Made by a program: the position numbers and the translations under genes. The notes below the pieces were generated by a model. That model had not been told where the DNA came from. It ran no database searches and saw only the letters and a list, made by a program, of their open reading frames with translations. Positions 9,538 through 16,772 of a stretch of 22,538 nucleotides of DNA are shown one piece after another. Positions within the stretch are counted from its first letter, which is position 1, and each line of letters begins with the position of its first letter. The DNA comes from a virus. Lineage: Duplodnaviria; Heunggongvirae; Uroviricota; Caudoviricetes. The stretch lies in IMG/VR virus record IMGVR_UViG_2667527827_000002; one strand, 5' to 3'.

Positions 9538-10347
9538 TCAATGAACGGTATCGAGCAGCTTTAACAGCTCAGGGAATCGGGATTCGAAGAAATGCGGCTG
9601 CGTCTCACGCGGATTTGCGGGACTGGTGATGTTCTTGCCGAACATGCAGCCTTTCGCCGTCAGCGACCAGAATTTTTTGATGTTGTTAATCCCGGTACGG
9701 CTGTATCGTTCGCGCTGCTCGACGATCCCCAGCTTCACCATCTGGTGATATGCCTGATTAGCCGTCAGGCGGATACCATACTGCTTCAGCAGTGCACTCA
9801 GCGACAGCGTCGGGCGGCTTGAGCCATCAGGCGCGTCAGCAGGTGCATCAATGGCATAGCGCGGTGCCAGATTCGGTAAGCCAACAGCCTCCTGGAGTTT
9901 CTGACAGGCACCAAGCACTGAAGAGTTAGACAGATTTAACTCCCGGCGCATAAAGTCCAGCAGGATCACGCCAGCCTGCATCTTGTCAGCAGCCTGTCCG
10001 GATAACTTTTCCGGCGCGCTGGTTACCATATCGAAAGTACGGATCACCTTCAGATGGAATGACGGGCTGATCCACATTGCATAGGCATACACCAGTTCCT
10101 TACAGACATACGTTCCCCGTTCATTTCCCCCATGAATCACACTCACCGGGTCAACACCCAAATTCTGGGTGTTGGTTAATTCATGAACAAGCTCAACAGT
10201 TTGTTGGCTGGAAAGAAACTTTCCTGGCTCCTTGGTTCTGGCATTTGCACCAGATGCTACTGCTGCGCGATGCAGATCGTTCAGGCTGTAACGCCCATAA
10301 GCATCACGACGAACTTCAATACCATCAATGACCATCAGATTATTCAT
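9538..10347 (-). CDS. KilA-N domain protein (antirepressor-like)
   Basis: 269 aa. ATG 10345-10347 with AGGAG about 9 nt upstream. N-terminal …MVIDGIEVRRDAYGRYSLNDLHRAA…KEPGKFL… matches the KilA-N DNA-binding domain pattern. Confidence 0.8.
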   Translation of the reverse strand: MNNLMVIDGIEVRRDAYGRYSLNDLHRAAVASGANARTKEPGKFLSSQQTVELVHELTNTQNLGVDPVSVIHGGNERGTYVCKELVYAYAMWISPSFHLKVIRTFDMVTSAPEKLSGQAADKMQAGVILLDFMRRELNLSNSSVLGACQKLQEAVGLPNLAPRYAIDAPADAPDGSSRPTLSLSALLKQYGIRLTANQAYHQMVKLGIVEQRERYSRTGINNIKKFWSLTAKGCMFGKNITSPANPRETQPHFFESRFPELLKLLDTVH

Positions 10348-10366
10348 ACTTCGTTTCTCCTCTTAA

Positions 10367-10756
10367 TCAGGCAGCTGCACCCGCCGTTTTCTCGTACTTA
10401 CTGATAGTGATCTCGACCTTCCCTTCCGGGATAACCGGTCCCCACTCCACCAGCATTCTTTTCACCTGACTGTCGTCTTCCCACACCCCCGCGTGGGTCA
10501 GGGCGTCAAACAGCGCCTTGTTATAGTTGTCCAGATCGCGGATCCTGTTATCCGGAGGAAACAACACGATCTCCACTGAAGCAGGTGCCGACGTTGGTTT
10601 CGGCAGACGACGTAACTGCTCAACTATTGCTGCACACGCCGCGCTCTGGAATTTGCGCCCCGCCGCGCTTATCAGGCTCTTACCTGCAAACGCCACTTTG
10701 TTGGGGTGTCGCCAGTACGTGTTCACGCTGGGCGGAAAAGGCAGTATTAGCTTCAT
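10367..10756 (-). CDS. rusA: Holliday-junction resolvase RusA-like endonuclease
   Basis: 129 aa. MKLILPFPPSVNTYWRH… …DLDNYNKALFDALTHAGVWEDDSQV… are RusA-family hallmarks. The ATG overlaps the upstream stop (ATGA). Confidence 0.85.
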   Translation of the reverse strand: MKLILPFPPSVNTYWRHPNKVAFAGKSLISAAGRKFQSAACAAIVEQLRRLPKPTSAPASVEIVLFPPDNRIRDLDNYNKALFDALTHAGVWEDDSQVKRMLVEWGPVIPEGKVEITISKYEKTAGAAA

Positions 10757-11079
10757 ACTTTCAGGCCCCTCTCATGTAACCAGTGGGCTGCACGCAACCT
10801 GGCGTTCTCCTCACCGGCAAGCAGTGCGCGGATGATACCGACCGCCTCGCTGTCGTCGTCCTTCACCGCGGTATGAAGCGTGATGCCCCGGGCCACGCCA
10901 CGCTTTATCGTGATGACGCCTTTTTTCTCCAGTGCGCGAAGATGCTCCACCGCTGCATTCACTGAACGGTATCCCAGCATGGTTGCCACCTCCTGATTGG
11001 TTGGCGGGAAGCCACGTTCTTTCTGATAAGAAATCAGCATATCCAGCACCTGCTGCTGGCATTGAGTTAACGTCGTCAT
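10753..11079 (-). CDS. LexA N-terminal DNA-binding-domain-like protein (no protease domain)
   Basis: 108 aa. MTTLTQCQQQVLDMLISYQKERGFPPTNQEVATMLGYRSVNAAVEHLRALEKKGVITI… closely parallels the LexA winged-helix N-terminus (…[55 protein letters not shown]…). It lacks the S24 peptidase part. Start and stop overlap neighbours (ATGA). Confidence 0.75.
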   Translation of the reverse strand: MTTLTQCQQQVLDMLISYQKERGFPPTNQEVATMLGYRSVNAAVEHLRALEKKGVITIKRGVARGITLHTAVKDDDSEAVGIIRALLAGEENARLRAAHWLHERGLKV

Positions 11080-11729
11080 GCCGCCATCTCCCTGACCAGT
11101 TTTTCTGCCTGCTGGCGAACCTGCGCCAGAAAGGCCTCACCACATGCCTCAAGTTCATCGCGCCCGATGTAGCTGATTGCCGGTCCCTTCCAGGTCTTGT
11201 CGAAAACAGCAATAGCACCAGCGAAGAAAGCGCCTGTCGGCACCTGCTTCTCATCCTTCGGGATAAACCAGGCAGGCAGTTCAAAACCAATACGCCCGCG
11301 AATAAAAGCAATATGATCTGCATCTTCCGGCCACCACACTTCGCTGGTGGCAGCTTTGATCAGGAAAACATAGCGCCCGCCTTTATCACGCATGGCACTG
11401 GCATGCTTCATGATGTAACGCATGCCGGTGATGTATTGCCCCTCATGCTGACTGGCGCGGCTGTATGGGGGATTACCAAAGGCAGCACCTTTAAGCTCCG
11501 CAAGGCGTTCTGACCAGTCATGCGCCAGCGCGTTGTCTTCCGCCGTGTAATACGCAGCACATTTGGCGTTATCACCGTCAGTGAACAGATCCAGAACAAA
11601 CGGGCCAAACAGGGTGTTAATTCCCCAGAAAATGTTGTCCGGCGTGCGCCACTGATCGCCCACTTCCTTCAGTTCATGGGCTGGTTTGTTCCGCAGTTCC
11701 GCCAGCGCCTGGCAATATTTATTACTCAT
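11076..11729 (-). CDS. Phage Dam-type N6-adenine DNA methyltransferase (NPPY motif)
   Basis: 217 aa from ATG 11727-11729, which shares one base with the upstream TAA. Motif …AFGNPPYSRA… The track's longer version uses a GTG at 11762. Nin-region position is typical for orphan phage Dam. Confidence 0.85.
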   Translation of the reverse strand: MSNKYCQALAELRNKPAHELKEVGDQWRTPDNIFWGINTLFGPFVLDLFTDGDNAKCAAYYTAEDNALAHDWSERLAELKGAAFGNPPYSRASQHEGQYITGMRYIMKHASAMRDKGGRYVFLIKAATSEVWWPEDADHIAFIRGRIGFELPAWFIPKDEKQVPTGAFFAGAIAVFDKTWKGPAISYIGRDELEACGEAFLAQVRQQAEKLVREMAA

Positions 11730-12217
11730 TAAGCCCCCACGTAATTCCCTGAGAGATACCACTCTTCACCTGATGCAGCCCGCTTACTGCTTTTCCGTAA
11801 ACACCGTTCACGACGCGCCAGAAAATTGTTTCGTTCTGGCTGGGAGTGGCTTTCACGGAATGCCGCCATCCACACCGTTGCAGCACGACGGTATAAGCCC
11901 CTCGACTCCAGTTCTTCAGCCTGGCGGGTCAGGCACAAAATCACCCGGGGGTCGTTAGTGCCGACATAGAACTTGCGCACAGGTCTGGTTTCACGAACTG
12001 GTTGTGGTTCCGGCTCCTGCGCTCTCTCAGTCAGGCGCGAGAAATGTCTGCGTGTATCTCCTTCACAACGGTGAGCCACACGCCCACTCTGACGTAACTT
12101 GCTTGCTGACTGCAGAACGCGCTGCCGTGAGTAACCTGCAAAAGCATCCGCAATGTCTCCGGAAGTACAGCCCGGATGGGCTTCAATGAATTTCTGAACT
12201 TCATTCAAAATACTCAT
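11729..12217 (-). CDS. PerC-family-like phage protein (YfdN-like size), N-terminal wHTH-like extension
   Basis: 162 aa from ATG 12215-12217 (GGGGGTGA just upstream). C-terminal …LESRGLYRRAATVWMAAFRES…ERNNFLARRERCLRKS… resembles the PerC/Pch motif pattern as I recall it. Confidence 0.6.
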   Translation of the reverse strand: MSILNEVQKFIEAHPGCTSGDIADAFAGYSRQRVLQSASKLRQSGRVAHRCEGDTRRHFSRLTERAQEPEPQPVRETRPVRKFYVGTNDPRVILCLTRQAEELESRGLYRRAATVWMAAFRESHSQPERNNFLARRERCLRKSSKRAASGEEWYLSGNYVGA

Positions 12218-12219
12218 GC

Positions 12220-13212
12220 TCACCCCCTGAATCCTGCCGGGATCTGGCTGTAGTCCACGTTGTCGTAACTGGATTTGAAATATGGGTCTTCGCGTTTTTC
12301 TGTGTATGTGCTGACGGACGGCGATAAGCGCAGGGAAAGCTCATCCCATTTTTCCCGCAGCTTCGACGGGCTGAGCACGTTACGGCACCAGAACGGATCG
12401 CGGCTGACGCGGCTGTACATCTCGCAGATTTGTTTGTGAGTACGACCATCCTGCACACACATCAGGCGAATTTCGTTTGCCCAGGCTGTCCAGTTCGGTT
12501 CTTTGGGACGAACCACCTCGCCGTCACATTCGGCGGCCTGCTCGTACAGGGCGATGATTTTTTTCCAGAGCCACTGTGCGCAGGTCAAATCATCCTGCGT
12601 TCCCCACTGGCGCTTTTTAGGGCTGAATACAACCGCATCAGGATGGCGAGTTAAAAACTCCTGTTCAGCCGTTTGCGTGTCCGGTTGCGAAGCGTCCGGA
12701 CGAGAAGAGGTTTTATTCTCTGTAGTAATCTCTGTTGTATTCTCTGTAAGATCATTGGGCCATTTTGACCCGATGACAGCGTGTCGTTTTGAACCAATGG
12801 ATCGTGTCATTTTGCGCCCATCCATCAGGTCACTTTGACCCGATGGAGAAGTGCATTTTGACCTGATGGATTCGTTCACTTTGACCTCTTCTAAAAGCTC
12901 ACTTTCATAGTTGATCGTGTAGAAGTTGGTCATGTCACGCTTCGATTTATTGAGTTGCTCGCGACGCAAAACCCCAAGTGATTTCAGGCTTGCAAATGTG
13001 CGTTTCAGAGTGGACTCTGACCAGAACGGAAACTGCTCCAGCCACTGTTCTGTCGTGTTATAAACCCAGCGAATTCCGCCATGCTCAGTGCCTGAATTCG
13101 TTTCATTCAGCCAGTAATGAAGCTGCTGCAACACAATTGCCTCATTCAGACCAATACGGCATGCAAGATCACGATTTATCACAATGGGCTGGGATGTCAT
13201 TAACAGGCTCAT
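12220..13212 (-). CDS. Phage replication initiation protein (lambda O-like, iteron-binding), ori embedded in the gene
   Basis: 330 aa. ATG 13210-13212 overlaps the upstream stop (ATGA). Six 23-bp-spaced direct repeats lie inside the coding sequence and encode a repetitive linker (…SIGSKRHAVIGSKW…), as in lambda O. Confidence 0.75.
   Translation of the reverse strand: MSLLMTSQPIVINRDLACRIGLNEAIVLQQLHYWLNETNSGTEHGGIRWVYNTTEQWLEQFPFWSESTLKRTFASLKSLGVLRREQLNKSKRDMTNFYTINYESELLEEVKVNESIRSKCTSPSGQSDLMDGRKMTRSIGSKRHAVIGSKWPNDLTENTTEITTENKTSSRPDASQPDTQTAEQEFLTRHPDAVVFSPKKRQWGTQDDLTCAQWLWKKIIALYEQAAECDGEVVRPKEPNWTAWANEIRLMCVQDGRTHKQICEMYSRVSRDPFWCRNVLSPSKLREKWDELSLRLSPSVSTYTEKREDPYFKSSYDNVDYSQIPAGFRG
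12761..12888. repeat. Iteron array (six direct repeats, consensus about CAYTTTGACCYGATGG, 23-bp period): putative phage origin of replication
   Basis: Copies begin at about 12761, 12785, 12808, 12831, 12854 and 12877. An adjacent relatively AT-rich stretch with three tctctgt repeats (about 12700-12755) lies on the downstream side relative to the O-like gene. Confidence 0.75.
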
Positions 13213-13433
13213 GCCGCACCTCCGAGATGCTTCATGTTTTTTCCGGAGCGAAAGGCTATAAGCGGCATACTGACGCGGTAATTACGGCCCAGCGGTTCAC
13301 AAATCACCTTCTGACATTCACGGTCAACCAGGCTAACACGTAGAACATGCCCTGCAGGCGTGGTGTACCACTGACCGGGGCGAGGACAACGGAAAGTCTG
13401 ATTGGTAAATCGTTTGAAAATATTCCGGATCAT
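13209..13433 (-). CDS. Hypothetical small phage protein (74 aa)
   Basis: ORF with ATG 13431-13433 overlapping the Rha stop (ATGA), and its own stop overlapping the O-like start (ATGA). No recognisable domain; supported mainly by coupling and operon context. Confidence 0.5.
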   Translation of the reverse strand: MIRNIFKRFTNQTFRCPRPGQWYTTPAGHVLRVSLVDRECQKVICEPLGRNYRVSMPLIAFRSGKNMKHLGGAA

Positions 13434-14578
13434 TTGCGCCCCCTTACCTCTGAAGAGTTCAGCGACGAATGAATAAGACGGGCAAGAAATGCCGCATCGT
13501 TAATTCGGTCATACAGACTTACAGCCAGAGGTGATTCAGCTTTTTCCAGCATGGGATAAAGCTGCTGCAACCAGACCTGATGAATTGATGAAATGTAGGA
13601 ATAGAGAACGCTGGCGTTATGTGCAACGTCGCTCGGTACAGCGGGCTTTGAAAGCTGTTTCTCCATCTGGTTAAAGGCATTGATGTATGCCTCTTTGAAC
13701 TGGGCAGCACGTTTACCCGTGAAACCCATAGCAAGAAACGCAAAGCCGTCGCGGGTTATTTGATAGCAAGGTAGTTTGCGGCCTGTGCAATCGGTGTAAT
13801 CACTCACCGAAAAATTGCGGGCAGTGAATGATGCGGAACATTCAAGCGTGCGGATCTTTTTCAGTACATCGTCATGACGTTTGGAGAAGAAGTTGGCAAC
13901 AGCCAGGGATGAAGTAACAGCCTGACCATCAACGATGGCAATTTCAGGTTGAGTGAGGGTTGGGATCGTAGCCATGATGGCAGTCTCCGATAACAGTGAA
14001 TTACCTTCACCACCGGAAACGCCAATTTCGCTGGTGGTGAACTGAACGGGGTTGGCGTAACCGGCGTTATCGGAAACCGGCGCACCTTTCGGTGCCCCCG
14101 TCCAGCCCACCATAATTTGGGTGTGCACAGACGCAGACGATAAAAAAGACGCTGGCGCGTCATATATCGCCGATAACATTTCCAGGACGCCAATCCCGAC
14201 ACCCGCTTTATAAGGTGCCTGAACAGTGTAACGTCCCGGAATGGCAGAATCAATGTGCTGGTGGTCCTTCACACTCAACAAAATCACGCCTGAATTTCCA
14301 CAAAGGACTAAAGCACTCATGCGGGTAGTCTTTGCGAAGATAGATAACGCGCTGTGTTTCTGGCTCCCAACGAATAACATGGACATAAAGCCCTCTTCCG
14401 TCACGAAACCAGCGGTTAAGTTCCTGCACAACTCGCCCCCCACAGTCAGGTAAAGTTCTCTGTGGTTACTTACAGCCAGGTGATTTGGTAATCTGCATTC
14501 ATGCCGTAACAACAGGTGTTCAGCGACGCTGACCACCAGCTGTTGCGACAAACGGTTATTTGCCGTTAAACTGTTCAT
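13430..14578 (-). CDS. Rha-family phage regulatory protein with an unusual ~200-aa N-terminal extension (alternative: Rha alone from internal ATG 13975)
   Basis: 382-aa open frame. ATG 14576-14578 overlaps the stop of the upstream CII-position gene (ATGA). The Rha/ORF6N-like domain (…AIVDGQAVTSSLAVANFFSKRHDDVLKKIRTLE…CYQITRDGFAFLAMGFTGKRAAQFKEAYINAFNQMEKQL…) occupies residues about 205-305. An internal ATG at 13973-13975 has GGAG 9 nt upstream. Confidence 0.7.
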   Translation of the reverse strand: MNSLTANNRLSQQLVVSVAEHLLLRHECRLPNHLAVSNHRELYLTVGGELCRNLTAGFVTEEGFMSMLFVGSQKHSALSIFAKTTRMSALVLCGNSGVILLSVKDHQHIDSAIPGRYTVQAPYKAGVGIGVLEMLSAIYDAPASFLSSASVHTQIMVGWTGAPKGAPVSDNAGYANPVQFTTSEIGVSGGEGNSLLSETAIMATIPTLTQPEIAIVDGQAVTSSLAVANFFSKRHDDVLKKIRTLECSASFTARNFSVSDYTDCTGRKLPCYQITRDGFAFLAMGFTGKRAAQFKEAYINAFNQMEKQLSKPAVPSDVAHNASVLYSYISSIHQVWLQQLYPMLEKAESPLAVSLYDRINDAAFLARLIHSSLNSSEVRGRK

Positions 14579-15138
14579 GCGTTAGTTTCTCCACAGACAC
14601 AAAACGCCACGACGCCCGGAGCTGCACACTCGCGGGCGTCACTCTTTTCTGGAGCGCAAAAGATTTTGTAGACCAGTGCTGCATGCTCCTGGAGCTTCGA
14701 AATTGACAGATACAACTCATCATTAATTGCTGTCTGCTCGTGTGGCTCCACTACCCCATCTTCGATTGCCGAACGAATCTGCTTTGAGTAACTCCCGATC
14801 TGTTCGATGACTTCCAGCAGGCGCTGGTTTATATCGGCGTTCTCTACTTCCTCAAGTTCAGGAAGCGATACAAACACCCCACCAGCAGACTGTGCGACAG
14901 CATCCGCAATGTAGTGAGTGCCAGCCGCGCGCTGTAAAATCATTGCCCATCCCAGCGGGAAAATCTGATCGCCATCTGCACGAAGGCGGTTGAATAAAGC
15001 GTTCTCTGTTACATCCAGCCACTCAGCAGCTTCAGCGTAACCTCCCGGCAACGCCGCGATAGTTTTTCTGACAGCTTTCACGTACCACTCAGGCTGTTTT
15101 TCTACTTTCCAGTGATGCTTACCCACGGTTAGCCTCAT
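14575..15138 (-). CDS. Phage regulatory protein in the CII position (possibly YdaT/CII-like family)
   Basis: 187-aa ORF directly downstream of the Cro-like gene. ATG 15136-15138 has no obvious SD. The family assignment is tentative, based on position and size only. Confidence 0.6.
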   Translation of the reverse strand: MRLTVGKHHWKVEKQPEWYVKAVRKTIAALPGGYAEAAEWLDVTENALFNRLRADGDQIFPLGWAMILQRAAGTHYIADAVAQSAGGVFVSLPELEEVENADINQRLLEVIEQIGSYSKQIRSAIEDGVVEPHEQTAINDELYLSISKLQEHAALVYKIFCAPEKSDARECAAPGVVAFCVCGETNA

Positions 15139-15169
15139 CGTTCTGTGGTTAAAAATTGAAGGTGTTCTG

Positions 15170-15370
15170 TTAATCTTTCGGATAGATATCCGGTCTTAAG
15201 TCAGATTTCGTAATTGCACCTGACGTGCATTGCTCAAGTTTTTTAGCCAGCACAAAACTGGCTTTTTTATAACCATTGAAAACCAGCCGTAAGTAGCCTG
15301 GTGTTGAGCCAACTTTTCCGGCCAACTCGCCCTGCTGTTCTTTGGTTAAAGAGTCCCAATACGCTTTCAT
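15170..15370 (-). CDS. Cro-like HTH regulator (YdaS/Cro family-like)
   Basis: 66 aa from ATG 15368-15370 with GGAGG 10 nt upstream. HTH-like …LAGKVGSTPGYLRLVFNGYKKASFVLAKKLE… Divergent from the repressor gene. The 167-aa track ORF is an upstream read-through across the operator region. Confidence 0.7.
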   Translation of the reverse strand: MKAYWDSLTKEQQGELAGKVGSTPGYLRLVFNGYKKASFVLAKKLEQCTSGAITKSDLRPDIYPKD

Positions 15371-15372
15371 AC

Positions 15373-15444
15373 AATATGTACCTCCGATATACATATTACA
15401 TGATTGAGATGAACCTTCAAGATACTTGTACCCTATCGGTACAA
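15373..15444. promoter_or_regulatory. Immunity-region operators and divergent promoters (OR/PR/PRM analogue)
   Basis: O1 15373-15397 is aatatgta-N9-tacatatt and overlaps a candidate Cro promoter -10 (TAATAT on the minus strand = plus 15393-15398; -35 TTGAAG = plus 15415-15420). O2 15426-15444 is ttgtacc-ctatc-ggtacaa and overlaps a candidate -35 for a leaderless repressor transcript starting near 15461. Confidence 0.55.
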
Positions 15445-15460
15445 AGGTTTTAATTTCGTT

Positions 15461-16135
15461 ATGAAAACAGTCCATGACATCCGGCGGTCTAACGCCAGAA
15501 AACTGAGAGATGGTGTTGGCGGGAATTCTTCCTTTGCCACCATGATTGATCGCGAGCCAACCCAGACCAGCAGGTTTATGGGAGATGGTGCTACTAAAAA
15601 TATCGGTGACAGCATGGCACGGCACATCGAAAAATGTTTCGACCTGCCTGTCGGATGGCTTGATCAAGAACACCAGACAACAAACATCACAAAAAAACCT
15701 GATGTTTCAATTACTAACAAACAAATAACGTTAGTCCCTGTCATATCATGGGTACAGGCCGGAGCATGGAAAGAAGTTGGCTATTCTGAGGTTGATTTGA
15801 GCACAGCAGAAACTTATCCCTGCCCTGTACCCTGTGGCGAAATGACTTATATCTTGCGGGTGATTGGTGATTCAATGATTGATGAGTACCGCCCGGGAGA
15901 CATGATTTTTGTTGATCCTGAAGTCCCTGCCTGCCACGGTGACGACGTTATTGCATTGATGCACGATACAGGCGAAACCACCTTCAAGCGGTTGATAGAA
16001 GATGGAACACAGCGTTACCTCAAAGCATTAAACCCAAACTGGCCTGAACCTTACATTAAGATCAACGGTAATTGCTCTATAATTGGTACAGTGATTTTCT
16101 CAGGAAAACCAAGAAGATACAAAATAAAGGCCTAA
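15461..16135 (+). CDS. CI-like prophage repressor with C-terminal S24 (LexA-like) autopeptidase domain
   Basis: 224 aa. C-terminal domain …VIGDSMIDEYRPGDMIFVDPE…GETTFKRLIEDGTQRYLKALNPNWPEP… closely parallels lambda CI/LexA, with the Ser in GDSM, the Lys in TFKRL and a candidate Ala-Gly cleavage site (…VQAGAW…). ATG sits at the end of the operator region, consistent with a leaderless mRNA. Confidence 0.9.
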   Translation: MKTVHDIRRSNARKLRDGVGGNSSFATMIDREPTQTSRFMGDGATKNIGDSMARHIEKCFDLPVGWLDQEHQTTNITKKPDVSITNKQITLVPVISWVQAGAWKEVGYSEVDLSTAETYPCPVPCGEMTYILRVIGDSMIDEYRPGDMIFVDPEVPACHGDDVIALMHDTGETTFKRLIEDGTQRYLKALNPNWPEPYIKINGNCSIIGTVIFSGKPRRYKIKA

Positions 16136-16147
16136 TCAATATTTATA

Positions 16148-16170
16148 ACCTGCTTCGGCAGGTTTTTTTA
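16148..16170 (+). terminator. Rho-independent terminator after the repressor gene
   Basis: cctgc-ttcg-gcagg hairpin (16149-16162) followed by tttttttat (16163-16170), 13 nt after the repressor stop. Confidence 0.7.
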
Positions 16171-16173
16171 TAC

Positions 16174-16201
16174 TTGACAATGTACCCTTGAGATACATAA
16201 T
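16174..16201 (+). promoter_or_regulatory. PL-like early-left promoter with embedded operator O3
   Basis: -35 TTGACA (16174-16179), 16-bp spacer, -10 CATAAT (16196-16201). The spacer and -10 contain atgtacccttgagatacat (16180-16198), which matches O1 (atgtacctccgatatacat) at 15 of 19 positions. Confidence 0.55.
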
Positions 16202-16619
16202 GTATCTAAAAGAAACATAACACAGGCAAGATTAAACTAAATTTGGTTGTAACACGGCGTATGGCACATGCGTCGTTAGCGGTCTGGGGACGTTAAAGGG
16301 GACAATCCACTCCTTGCTCGAGCAAACAAACCAGGTAGCCGGAATGTGCAAGTCAATGATGATGCTGATAAGACGCCTAACCAGCGTGGCGATTCGGTTT
16401 GACGCCTGGGAAGAGACCAGGGTGCAACGATGAGGGCATTTATGGAACCGCGACAAAGTGTGGTGCCGTAACTGGCTAAGTGCTCTCAGCGTTGTGGTGA
16501 ATGCGCAGGCTGATGCGCGAAAGACATTGCAGCTATTGCGGAAAAGAGCTGTTCGGCGGGGCAATTAAACGCCCGTGAGAGTCTGAAATAACCGCAAGCC
16601 GGAGATCAGCACCGGTCAC

Positions 16620-16685
16620 CACAACAGCCACTGCTTTGGCGGTACCAGTTTGTACACTTGCTTCCGGCTGGTACCGCTCTTTTTA
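16620..16685 (+). ncRNA. Candidate DicF-like leader-derived sRNA ending at an intrinsic terminator (tentative)
   Basis: 10-bp perfect inverted repeat gcggtaccag (16639-16648) / ctggtaccgc (16668-16677) followed by tcttttt. The 5' arm region TTTGGCGGTACCAGTTTGTAC resembles the DicF core as I recall it (UUUGGCGGUAUCAGUUUUAC). Lies in the early-left leader, as dicF lies downstream of dicA in Qin. The recollection is unverified. Confidence 0.3.
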
Positions 16686-16690
16686 CAAAA

Positions 16691-16772
16691 CAGAGAAGAG
16701 CATCACCGGACGACGGGCTCATAACCCAATCCATCCGGGCGGCTGCCACCGCAGGTGTTCTTCTCTGTTTTG
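16691..16772 (+). terminator. Second large terminator-like structure in the early-left leader
   Basis: Closing stem cagagaaga (16691-16699) / tcttctctg (16759-16767), extendable to about 14 bp, followed by ttttg. It encloses about 50 nt with internal GC-rich sub-hairpins (ccgga…tccgg, gcgg…ccgc). Lies about 50 nt upstream of the first early-left gene. Confidence 0.35.

Follow-up and report, generated by a model that had tools for sequence, protein, structure and literature searches.

Is a 382-codon stop-free frame that ends in a Rha-family regulator one gene, or several elements that happen to be read as one? The question is raised by a Caudoviricetes sequence of 22,538 nucleotides (nt) (IMG/VR record IMGVR_UViG_2667527827_000002; this whole stretch is called the window here), in which a first-pass annotation had noted the Rha domain about 200 codons into the frame and had offered two explanations, either a novel fusion of an unknown domain to Rha or a separate functional element followed by a Rha gene starting at an internal ATG (13975). 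Here, we report that the frame is composite and not one protein-coding gene. The region is very probably an antisense-RNA switch of the P1 immI, P4, and Gifsy-1 type, set in the early rightward operon of a lambdoid (e14/ST64B/cdtI-like) prophage, with a Rha of 181 amino acids (aa) that starts at 13975. Judged from the sequence, the most likely functional products would be a DUF4222 protein, an IsrK RNA, a C4 RNA, and the 181-aa Rha.

Results

Both ends of the frame were as first described. The TGA of the upstream ymfL-like gene and the ATG of the long frame (14578..14576, with GGAG 10 nt 5') share the tetranucleotide ATGA, the upstream, CII-position gene matches YmfL and Phage_CP76, Phage_pRha matches the long open reading frame (ORF) at aa 222 to 307 (1.7e-30), and codon 202 is the internal ATG (13975..13973), which has its own GGAG (13988..13985). 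The span given for the element also stood; its strand had been left unstated (it is the minus strand), and the RNA genes and an out-of-frame DUF4222 gene inside it had been overlooked. The 603-nt extension ahead of codon 202 consists of about 50 codons of linker, DUF4222 read in the wrong frame (codons ~50 to 110), and a promoter, isrK, C4, and target sites (codons ~117 to 201).

The window was scanned against Rfam at curated thresholds and gave exactly two matches, both on the ORF strand within the extension, namely, an IsrK-like RNA and a C4-type antisense RNA (Table 1); c4-a1b1 (RF03163) matched the former at 20.4 bits, below threshold. The minimum-energy fold of C4 (−47.8 kcal/mol) equals the Rfam structure. 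Its a' and b' segments find perfect matches of 7, 8, 7, and 9 nt in a1, b1, a2, and b2, respectively, the first two lying in IsrK and the last two downstream of C4. The 9-nt b':b2 match lies within a predicted duplex of 13 bp with wobbles (13996..13984; −18.8 kcal/mol), which covers the GGAG 9 nt 5' of ATG 13975; none of 500 shuffled targets paired as well with b' as the leader did. The second of the two initial explanations is supported by these elements, since the extension holds a DUF4222 gene and an isrK-C4 cassette whose b' pairs with the GGAG of Rha.

The RNAs were compared across 120 viral contigs carrying the C4 5' core and 74 loci encoding Rha relatives in other species. In 18 diverse sequences, including P4 CI RNA and Gifsy-1, 97.9% of cells in the C4 structure were paired, 17 of the 27 pairs had changed on both sides (0 of 500 shuffles), and shifted-register controls paired at only 34 to 47%. 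The a1/a'/a2 and b1/b'/b2 elements co-vary, with all 21 sequence clusters carrying their own matched triplets, and the mean complementarity of C4 to b2 was 7.9 nt for cognate versus 4.75 nt for noncognate pairs. In most types examined, b2 abuts the Shine-Dalgarno sequence of the downstream ATG. The a/b types are UUGGCG/GUUAUCGG in the window, UUGGCG/GCUACC in cdtI, GUGGAAA/CACCAAAG in mEp460, and GUGGAAA/CAACAUAG in ST64B, and others are present as well.

The a and b elements assort independently: at least five b types are combined with a UUGGCG, and b CACCAAAG is found with two a types (representatives L001, L002, L003, L005, L006, L013, L022, L025, L026, L062, L064, L077, L083, L088, and L096). 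This points to recombinational shuffling of RNA immunity specificities among lambdoid, P4-like, and other elements. Some prophages carry tandem isrK-C4 cassettes 350 to 950 nt apart (Table 1), and those of L034, L045, and L202 have differing a/b specificities and separate Rha genes or short downstream ORFs.

A C4-type RNA lies ~55 nt upstream of the Rha start in all 20 Rha-relative loci scanned (19 genomes and ~12 genera: Citrobacter, Serratia, Edwardsiella, Pantoea, Izhakiella, Symbiopectobacterium, Erwinia, Aeromonas, Marinomonas, Endozoicomonas, Providencia, and Phlomobacter). Both C4 and isrK are matched in 18 of them, and the remaining two match sRNA-Xcc1 with no isrK match. At the C4 position, sRNA-Xcc1 (RF02221) was found in Providencia alcalifaciens (L134, 2367..2453; 72 bits) and "Ca. 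Phlomobacter fragariae" (L159, 2362..2452; 63 bits), and it may be a C4 relative with the same role upstream of Rha-like genes.

A putative promoter, PisrK, was assigned from positional conservation and not from a consensus scan: its hexamers and their distance are conserved upstream of isrK across many genera, Gifsy-1, and P4. Its −10 hexamer ends 7 nt before the isrK 5' end (14218), and the DUF4222 stop TGA (14252..14250) falls within its −35 hexamer. In Gifsy-1, PisrK has been shown to drive the downstream operon (PMC4825925).

Several observations place the start of Rha at 13975. The 181-aa protein matches Phage_pRha (PF09669; 4.9e-31, 107.6 bits against a cut-off of 29.9) at aa 21 to 106 and TIGR02681 (2e-30), homology in other genera (tblastn) starts at its residue 1, and its Shine-Dalgarno sequence and ATG are conserved where the upstream frame is closed. 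The GenBank record of Shiga toxin (Stx) phage F039 (an Stx2 phage) annotates isrK, C4, and then a Rha coding sequence after them. The proteins found downstream of the cassette (Rha of 181 to 187 aa, a 77-aa protein, and a 120-aa protein) share only their start region, M-A/T-T-I/V/L-P, which places a mosaic boundary just 3' of ATG 13975.

Coding selection was measured as frame-specific proportions of nonsynonymous and synonymous differences (pN/pS; Nei-Gojobori) against ST64B-type and L086-type homologues. Over bases 150 to 329 of the long frame, pN/pS was 0.043/0.378 (ST64B type) and 0.103/0.705 (L086 type) when read as DUF4222 (ratio, ~0.11 to 0.15), against 0.133/0.040 and 0.242/0.170, respectively, when read in the long frame, where pN exceeded pS and the differences concentrated at the second codon position. 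Over bases 330 to 603 (promoter, isrK, C4, and targets), pN was about equal to pS in all frames, with differences spread evenly across codon positions. Over bases 604 to 1149 (Rha), the long frame gave 0.125/0.496 (ST64B type; ratio, 0.25). Rha evolves as a normal gene, and coding selection is present only in the DUF4222 frame and in Rha; an alignment of homologues showed no purifying selection at the amino acid level in the long frame over bases 150 to 603.

From these elements, a switch can be proposed. C4 would be produced, presumably by processing, from a transcript that reads through from PisrK. In P1, C4 is reportedly matured by RNase P from a precursor, and its translational block is said to lead to Rho-dependent termination (work attributed to Hartmann, 1995, and Biere, 1992). 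Pairing of a' and b' with a2 and b2 would block translation of Rha, because b2 overlaps its Shine-Dalgarno sequence, and by analogy with P1 and P4, this block may also promote premature termination. The short IsrK RNA, with a1 and b1 as decoys, would titrate C4, and Rha would then act on the CI repressor or otherwise promote lytic growth. Three of these steps are ones that we infer: the direction of regulation, how C4 is processed, and Rha acting as an antirepressor. The decoy role would explain the activation of anrP by IsrK in Gifsy-1, where IsrK supplied in trans raises anrP translation 139-fold and AnrP induces the prophage (PMC4825925).

The frame itself raises a further question, as the first-pass annotation had argued that a stop-free stretch of this length is probably coding. 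Part of that argument stands. The 603-nt extension contains no in-frame stops and 11 and 10 in the other two frames, and its openness exceeds chance, since only ~1 in 3,000 mononucleotide shuffles of it was stop-free. The frame has the usual ATGA start and is perhaps translated; the part that does not stand is a conserved protein domain. A purely noncoding leader, in which nothing 5' of 13975 is translated in the long frame and the openness comes from ancestry, GC-rich RNA stems, or chance, is the alternative that survives best, and we consider it unlikely. It agrees with the equality of pN and pS over the RNA region, with aa 1 to 116 matching no known family, and with single-sequence AlphaFold2 yielding nothing (predicted local distance difference test [pLDDT] score, 33 throughout the 382-aa ORF, the real Rha domain included, and uninformative on the extension). 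It also agrees with homologues: in 10 of the 19 loci of other genera, the upstream frame is closed 21 to 192 nt before the Rha ATG, with isrK, C4, and Rha, including its Shine-Dalgarno sequence and ATG, all kept. Such frame-disrupting differences had been named at the outset as evidence against a coding extension.

Against a purely noncoding leader stands the distribution of stops. In the 11 clusters with the M-A/T-T-I/V/L-P start downstream, none of the 32 distinct stop positions between −110 and the ATG is in phase (17 and 15 fall in the other frames), whereas ten clusters with the same C4 core and other downstream genes show no bias (22, 16, and 25 stop positions). In both the viral and the genome-contig sets, the ATGA or GTGA overlap with a Shine-Dalgarno sequence on the upstream gene recurs whatever that gene is, over many unrelated contexts, and eight of the nine open frames in the genome-contig set begin with it. 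In Edwardsiella and Izhakiella, the frame starts on the DUF4222 stop and stays open for 639 to 969 nt antisense to BrnT/BrnA or TumE genes (0 stops versus 10 to 22 in the other frames; 0 of 3,000 shuffles stop-free). The toxin-antitoxin (TA) pairs there (BrnT/BrnA, or TumE with an HVO_A0114-type helix-turn-helix protein) are inserted on the opposite strand between DUF4222 and isrK (Table 1). In Gifsy-1, ribosomes translate the homologous orf45, an ORF overlapping the C4-like STnc1160, and anrP translation needs it; the nucleotide sequence of orf45 is conserved while its amino acid sequence is not (PMC4825925).

In enterobacterial relatives, a frame that is kept open and usually given ATGA starts, even across antisense TA genes, suggests that ribosomes translate straight through it and that no functional domain results. 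We therefore propose, at slightly less than even odds, that in enterobacterial prophages of this type selection maintains an ATGA-coupled frame through the cassette and into Rha in phase, without protein-level conservation, and that its role would be translation itself. After induction, ribosomes that arrive on PR transcripts by coupling from ymfL would traverse the cassette and prevent isrK terminator formation, C4 pairing, and Rho-dependent polarity; PisrK transcripts in the lysogen, which do not carry the long-frame start, would stay under C4 control. An N-terminally extended Rha would then arise as a by-product or else serve as a second isoform, in the manner of P1 Ant1/Ant2.

Several points weigh against the switch and the pass-through frame as proposed. 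A consensus scan of 13300..15500 called no sigma-70 promoter, and PisrK has only 8 of 12 consensus matches. Rha is a winged-helix DNA-binding family whose antirepressor role is assumed here from position only, and the literature searched held nothing decisive on whether Rha acts as an antirepressor in Stx phages. No separate icd-like ORF lies between C4 (which ends at 14030) and ATG 13975, unlike in P1; at other loci with the same C4 core, a 73-aa ORF, annotated as Icd-like in Escherichia coli genomes, lies between C4 and the output gene. The authors of the Gifsy-1 work explain IsrK activation by alternative mRNA structures and not by C4 titration, and constitutive STnc1160 did not relieve toxicity in that work (PMC4825925), for which reasons the decoy step is one that we infer. 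The frame has stops in three enterobacterial-type loci (Serratia Ag1, "Ca. Symbiopectobacterium endolongispinus," and Erwinia tracheiphila) and in all non-enterobacterial loci, so its openness is not obligatory; several of these closed-frame loci have a different frame that runs across C4 and terminates in ATGA at the start of the gene. Lastly, a translated frame overlapping the DUF4222 gene would be unusual.

In the 5' part of the frame, residues 1 to 120 match no family in Pfam or NCBIfam, and in another frame, a 59-aa ORF matches DUF4222 (PF13973; 9.5e-14, 51.1 bits against a cut-off of 27; profile positions 4 to 51 of 53), with no match in NCBIfam. The NCBI Prokaryotic Genome Annotation Pipeline (PGAP) annotates the same DUF4222 ORF in E. 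coli XYEH3314, and the window copy is 64% identical to that of e14 (ungapped) and 43% identical to that of Izhakiella. One candidate for a frame-disrupted homologue, E. coli 01_3327 (L200), was rejected: both frames are intact in its sequence, so its shorter Rha and partial DUF4222 are an annotation choice of PGAP.

That the first ~112 codons encode a YmfM-type cell division inhibitor, as annotated for E. coli K-12 e14, and that read-through joins it to the elements that follow is quite improbable. K-12 ymfM likewise overlaps ymfL at an ATGA and begins with MNSLT, YmfM is 33% identical to aa 1 to 99 of the long frame, and a pBAD-ymfM clone causes filamentation (bioRxiv 10.1101/2020.11.19.390815). 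YmfM itself matched no Pfam family, however, and another frame within e14 ymfM is DUF4222 (8.6e-19), with the 64% ungapped identity to the window given above, against 33% with 10% gaps for the YmfM frame; a similarity this weak is what reading a conserved gene out of frame would give, and it does not go beyond what the overlapping DUF4222 frame explains. Selection, too, acts on the DUF4222 frame, and the passages of the ymfM paper that were searched report no frame-specific mutants.

In e14 of K-12 MG1655 (NC_000913.3), ymfM (112 aa; 1203822..1204160) overlaps an unannotated 59-aa DUF4222 ORF (~1204001..1204180). The active product behind the filamentation phenotype could be the DUF4222 protein, because the whole ymfM ORF was cloned and the passages searched hold no frame-specific test.

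What remains is the Ash domain (PF10554), which would make the long ORF a fusion. Pfam Phage_ASH matches the ORF at aa 117 to 212 (14230..13943; 3.6e-17, 63.2 bits against a cut-off of 26), above cut-off but just over isrK and C4, with no purifying selection in its frame. In phage P4, Ash matches the historical "cI gene product (AA 1-137)" at residues 22 to 85, over the Rfam C4 (the CI RNA), and the P4 immunity factor is an RNA (PMC4825925; PMC3632133). Because the match coincides with isrK and C4 here and with the CI RNA in P4, the "Ash domain" of Stx-phage Rha/Ash proteins is best read, on this sequence evidence, as what results when conserved RNA genes are conceptually translated. PF10554 served as the epsilon profile and marker in a survey of P4-like satellites. 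The identity of Ash with the P4 epsilon antirepressor, stated there, was rejected; P4 epsilon falls in a different family, PF25738, and the ORF that Ash matches is "cI." Caution is warranted in using PF10554 as a protein family marker, as it was seemingly built on translations of P4 CI RNA and seqA.

A functional 382-aa two-domain "Ash-Rha" (or YmfM-Ash-Rha) protein with residues 1 to 200 as a domain of unknown function is very improbable, even though a single open coding sequence is annotated in cdtI, mEp460, ST64B, WGPS2, and RefSeq E. coli genomes, Rha/Ash proteins are listed in the Stx "Eru" paper (PMC8951638; bioRxiv 10.1101/2021.11.24.469858), and indels in homologues are in frame with stops avoided, since no amino-acid-level constraint appears anywhere in bases 150 to 603, the Ash profile is translated isrK and C4 that also matches a discredited P4 ORF, the frame content differs wholly by locus (out-of-frame DUF4222 here, antisense TA genes in Edwardsiella and Izhakiella), the extension frame is missing from distant homologues, and the downstream proteins have only their start region in common. 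A novel domain fused to Rha, the first of the two initial explanations, is not supported.

The genes on the minus strand run in the order cro, ymfL, DUF4222, the cassette (PisrK, isrK, C4, a2, and b2 with the Shine-Dalgarno sequence), Rha, a 74-aa gene, and replication genes (Table 1). The AUG at 14113..14111, in the C4 5' stem, is in frame with Rha and is the counterpart of the first AUG of Gifsy-1 orf45. No family was matched by the 74-aa gene; its pattern (G..Y...G.V.RV....E...VI.E...R.Y.V...L..F) resembles DUF4222, and in L045 and L079, the stop of its homologue overlaps the open-frame start of the next cassette. The remaining window (8541..12223 on the minus strand and 15461..20399 on the plus strand) is an ordinary lambdoid early region. 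Its minus strand carries PerC-like, Dam methylase, RusA, KilA-N, and DUF968/HNH genes, and its plus strand carries DUF2303 and DUF551 genes. Among the ORFs tested, Pfam recognized no N-like antiterminator.

Table 1. Features of the switch region, with the related features of phage P4 and of other loci
Feature	Coordinates	Strand	Remarks
Window
YmfL-family/Phage_CP76 "CII-position" gene	14575..15138	minus	PF06892, 5.3e-15; NF041471 phage_reg_YmfL, 7.4e-50
382-codon stop-free frame	13430..14578	minus	ATG start; composite
59-aa DUF4222 gene	14250..14429	minus	GTG start, GGGGG Shine-Dalgarno; other frame than long ORF
PisrK promoter (putative)	14225..14253	minus	−35 TTGATT 14253..14248; 17-nt spacer; −10 TACACT 14230..14225
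IsrK-like RNA	14142..14218	minus	RF01394, 61.5 bits (threshold, 50)
a1, UUGGCGU	14193..14187	minus	IsrK hairpin loop; complementary to C4 a'
b1, GUUAUCGG	14177..14170	minus	in IsrK; complementary to C4 b'
IsrK intrinsic terminator, GACGC-GCCA-GCGUC-U6	14161..14142	minus	stem 14161..14148, then U6
C4-type antisense RNA	14030..14117	minus	RF01695, 82.8 bits (threshold, 45); full-length model, 1-87
C4 b', UCCGAUAAC	14074..14066	minus	second loop
C4 a', ACGCCAA	14058..14052	minus	adjoining single strand
a2, UUGGCGU	14025..14019	minus	downstream of C4
b2, GUUAUCGGA	13994..13986	minus	downstream of C4, at Rha Shine-Dalgarno
Rha-family gene proper, 181 aa	13430..13975	minus	ATG 13975; position of an antirepressor
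74-aa gene	13209..13433	minus	ATGA-coupled to Rha stop; "hypothetical protein" conserved in cdtI, mEp460, WGPS2
Replication gene	12220..13212	minus	next after 74-aa gene in early-right operon
CI repressor, S24 LexA-like	15461..16135
Phage P4 (RefSeq NC_001609)
"cI" coding sequence	8168..8584	minus	"transcriptional repressor"
C4 (CI RNA)	8420..8507	minus	74.9 bits
isrK (seqA)	8615..8692	minus	60.8 bits
Loci with inserted TA pairs
L130 (Edwardsiella hoshinae)	1619..2257
L128
L131
L133 (Izhakiella australiensis)	1289..2257
Tandem cassettes
L034	7837, 8490		C4 cores
L045	7021, 7890		C4 cores
L136	1299..1493, 2258..2446		isrK/C4
L186	2004..2082, 2361..2447		C4
L202			two Ash/Rha units

Discussion

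The locus is a member of an already known family of phage RNA switches, isrK/C4 (seqA/CI), and has been misannotated as a fusion protein. Three aspects appear not to be generally appreciated, namely, that the Ash domain coincides with these RNA genes, that a DUF4222 gene is hidden in the 5' part, and that the open frame is maintained without protein-level constraint. Hundreds of E. coli, Shigella, and Salmonella prophages, Stx-converting ones included, are annotated with a ~380-aa "Rha" or "Rha/Ash" regulator, and the arrangement proposed here, a 181-aa Rha under an IsrK/C4 switch next to an unannotated DUF4222 gene, alters how the circuitry of phage induction is modelled. The combinatorial a/b types would form a diversifying, RNA-based second layer of immunity in lambdoid phages. 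A hypothesis that can be tested follows from the conserved frame kept open across the cassette, on how translation, Rho, and antisense RNA might act together when the prophage is induced: if ribosomes do pass through, PR-derived expression would be insensitive to C4, the isrK terminator, and Rho, and the switch would control the lysogen's transcripts from the internal promoter alone.

Comparison with known systems

IsrK-C4 pairs have been noted earlier in lambdoid prophages (PMC3632133). The window ORF belongs by sequence to the Stx "Eru" Rha-Ash proteins; unlike in the protein reading, the "domain" coincides base for base with isrK, C4, and their targets.

In P4 immunity (seqA-CI RNA-seqC; work of Ghisotti, Deho, Forti, and colleagues, cited in PMC4825925 and PMC3632133), isrK/seqA and C4/CI RNA occur in the same order and spacing, with the promoter at the same distance, and an open frame over the RNA gene ("cI," 137 aa) ends on the epsilon start and gives an Ash match. 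CI RNA pairs with seqA and seqC, leading to transcription termination (PMC4825925). P4 differs in that termination is controlled ahead of epsilon and the alpha primase, the next gene is not Rha, and the ORF is out of frame with it.

The immI region of P1 and P7 (c4-icd-ant; Citron and Schuster 1990 and 1992, reviewed in PMC8198154 and PMC8546580), in which C4 represses antirepressor synthesis in P1, shares the Rfam C4 family, a1 and b1 upstream and a2 and b2 downstream of c4, b2 over the ribosome-binding site of the first downstream ORF, a secondary lysis-lysogeny regulator as output, and specificity types that vary. Unlike in P1, the cassette here has no icd, its output is Rha and not Ant1/Ant2, it lies in a lambdoid PR operon and not in a separate C1-controlled operon, and an intrinsic terminator follows a1 and b1 (the IsrK form).

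Gifsy-1 isrK-orf45-anrP (Hershko-Shalev et al. 2016, PMC4825925) resembles the present locus in its promoter (putative here), an IsrK with a terminator, a C4-like STnc1160 (Rfam C4, 69 bits), a target over the Shine-Dalgarno sequence, and a regulator of the Rha/ORF6N kind (AnrP is ORF6N). In both, an ORF across C4 starts at the same AUG, that in AAUUAUGGUGGG, and the a/b complementarity is likewise arranged. In the Gifsy-1 sequence (NC_010392; L204, 1492..1735), the C4 loop CGGUGAU is complementary to AUCACCG directly 5' of the anrP GGAGG and to UCACCG in IsrK, and a' ACGCCAA matches UUGGCGU on both sides. From this complementarity, IsrK activation of anrP could be titration of the C4-type STnc1160, a possibility that the authors discussed and did not favor. 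The Gifsy-1 cassette follows the Q antiterminator gene, whereas that of the window lies between ymfL/DUF4222 and the replication genes, and orf45 is 45 codons long and ends in AUGA on anrP, whereas the frame in the window has no stop, runs in phase into Rha, and extends 5' to the ATGA overlap with ymfL, with Phage_pRha and not ORF6N as its output.

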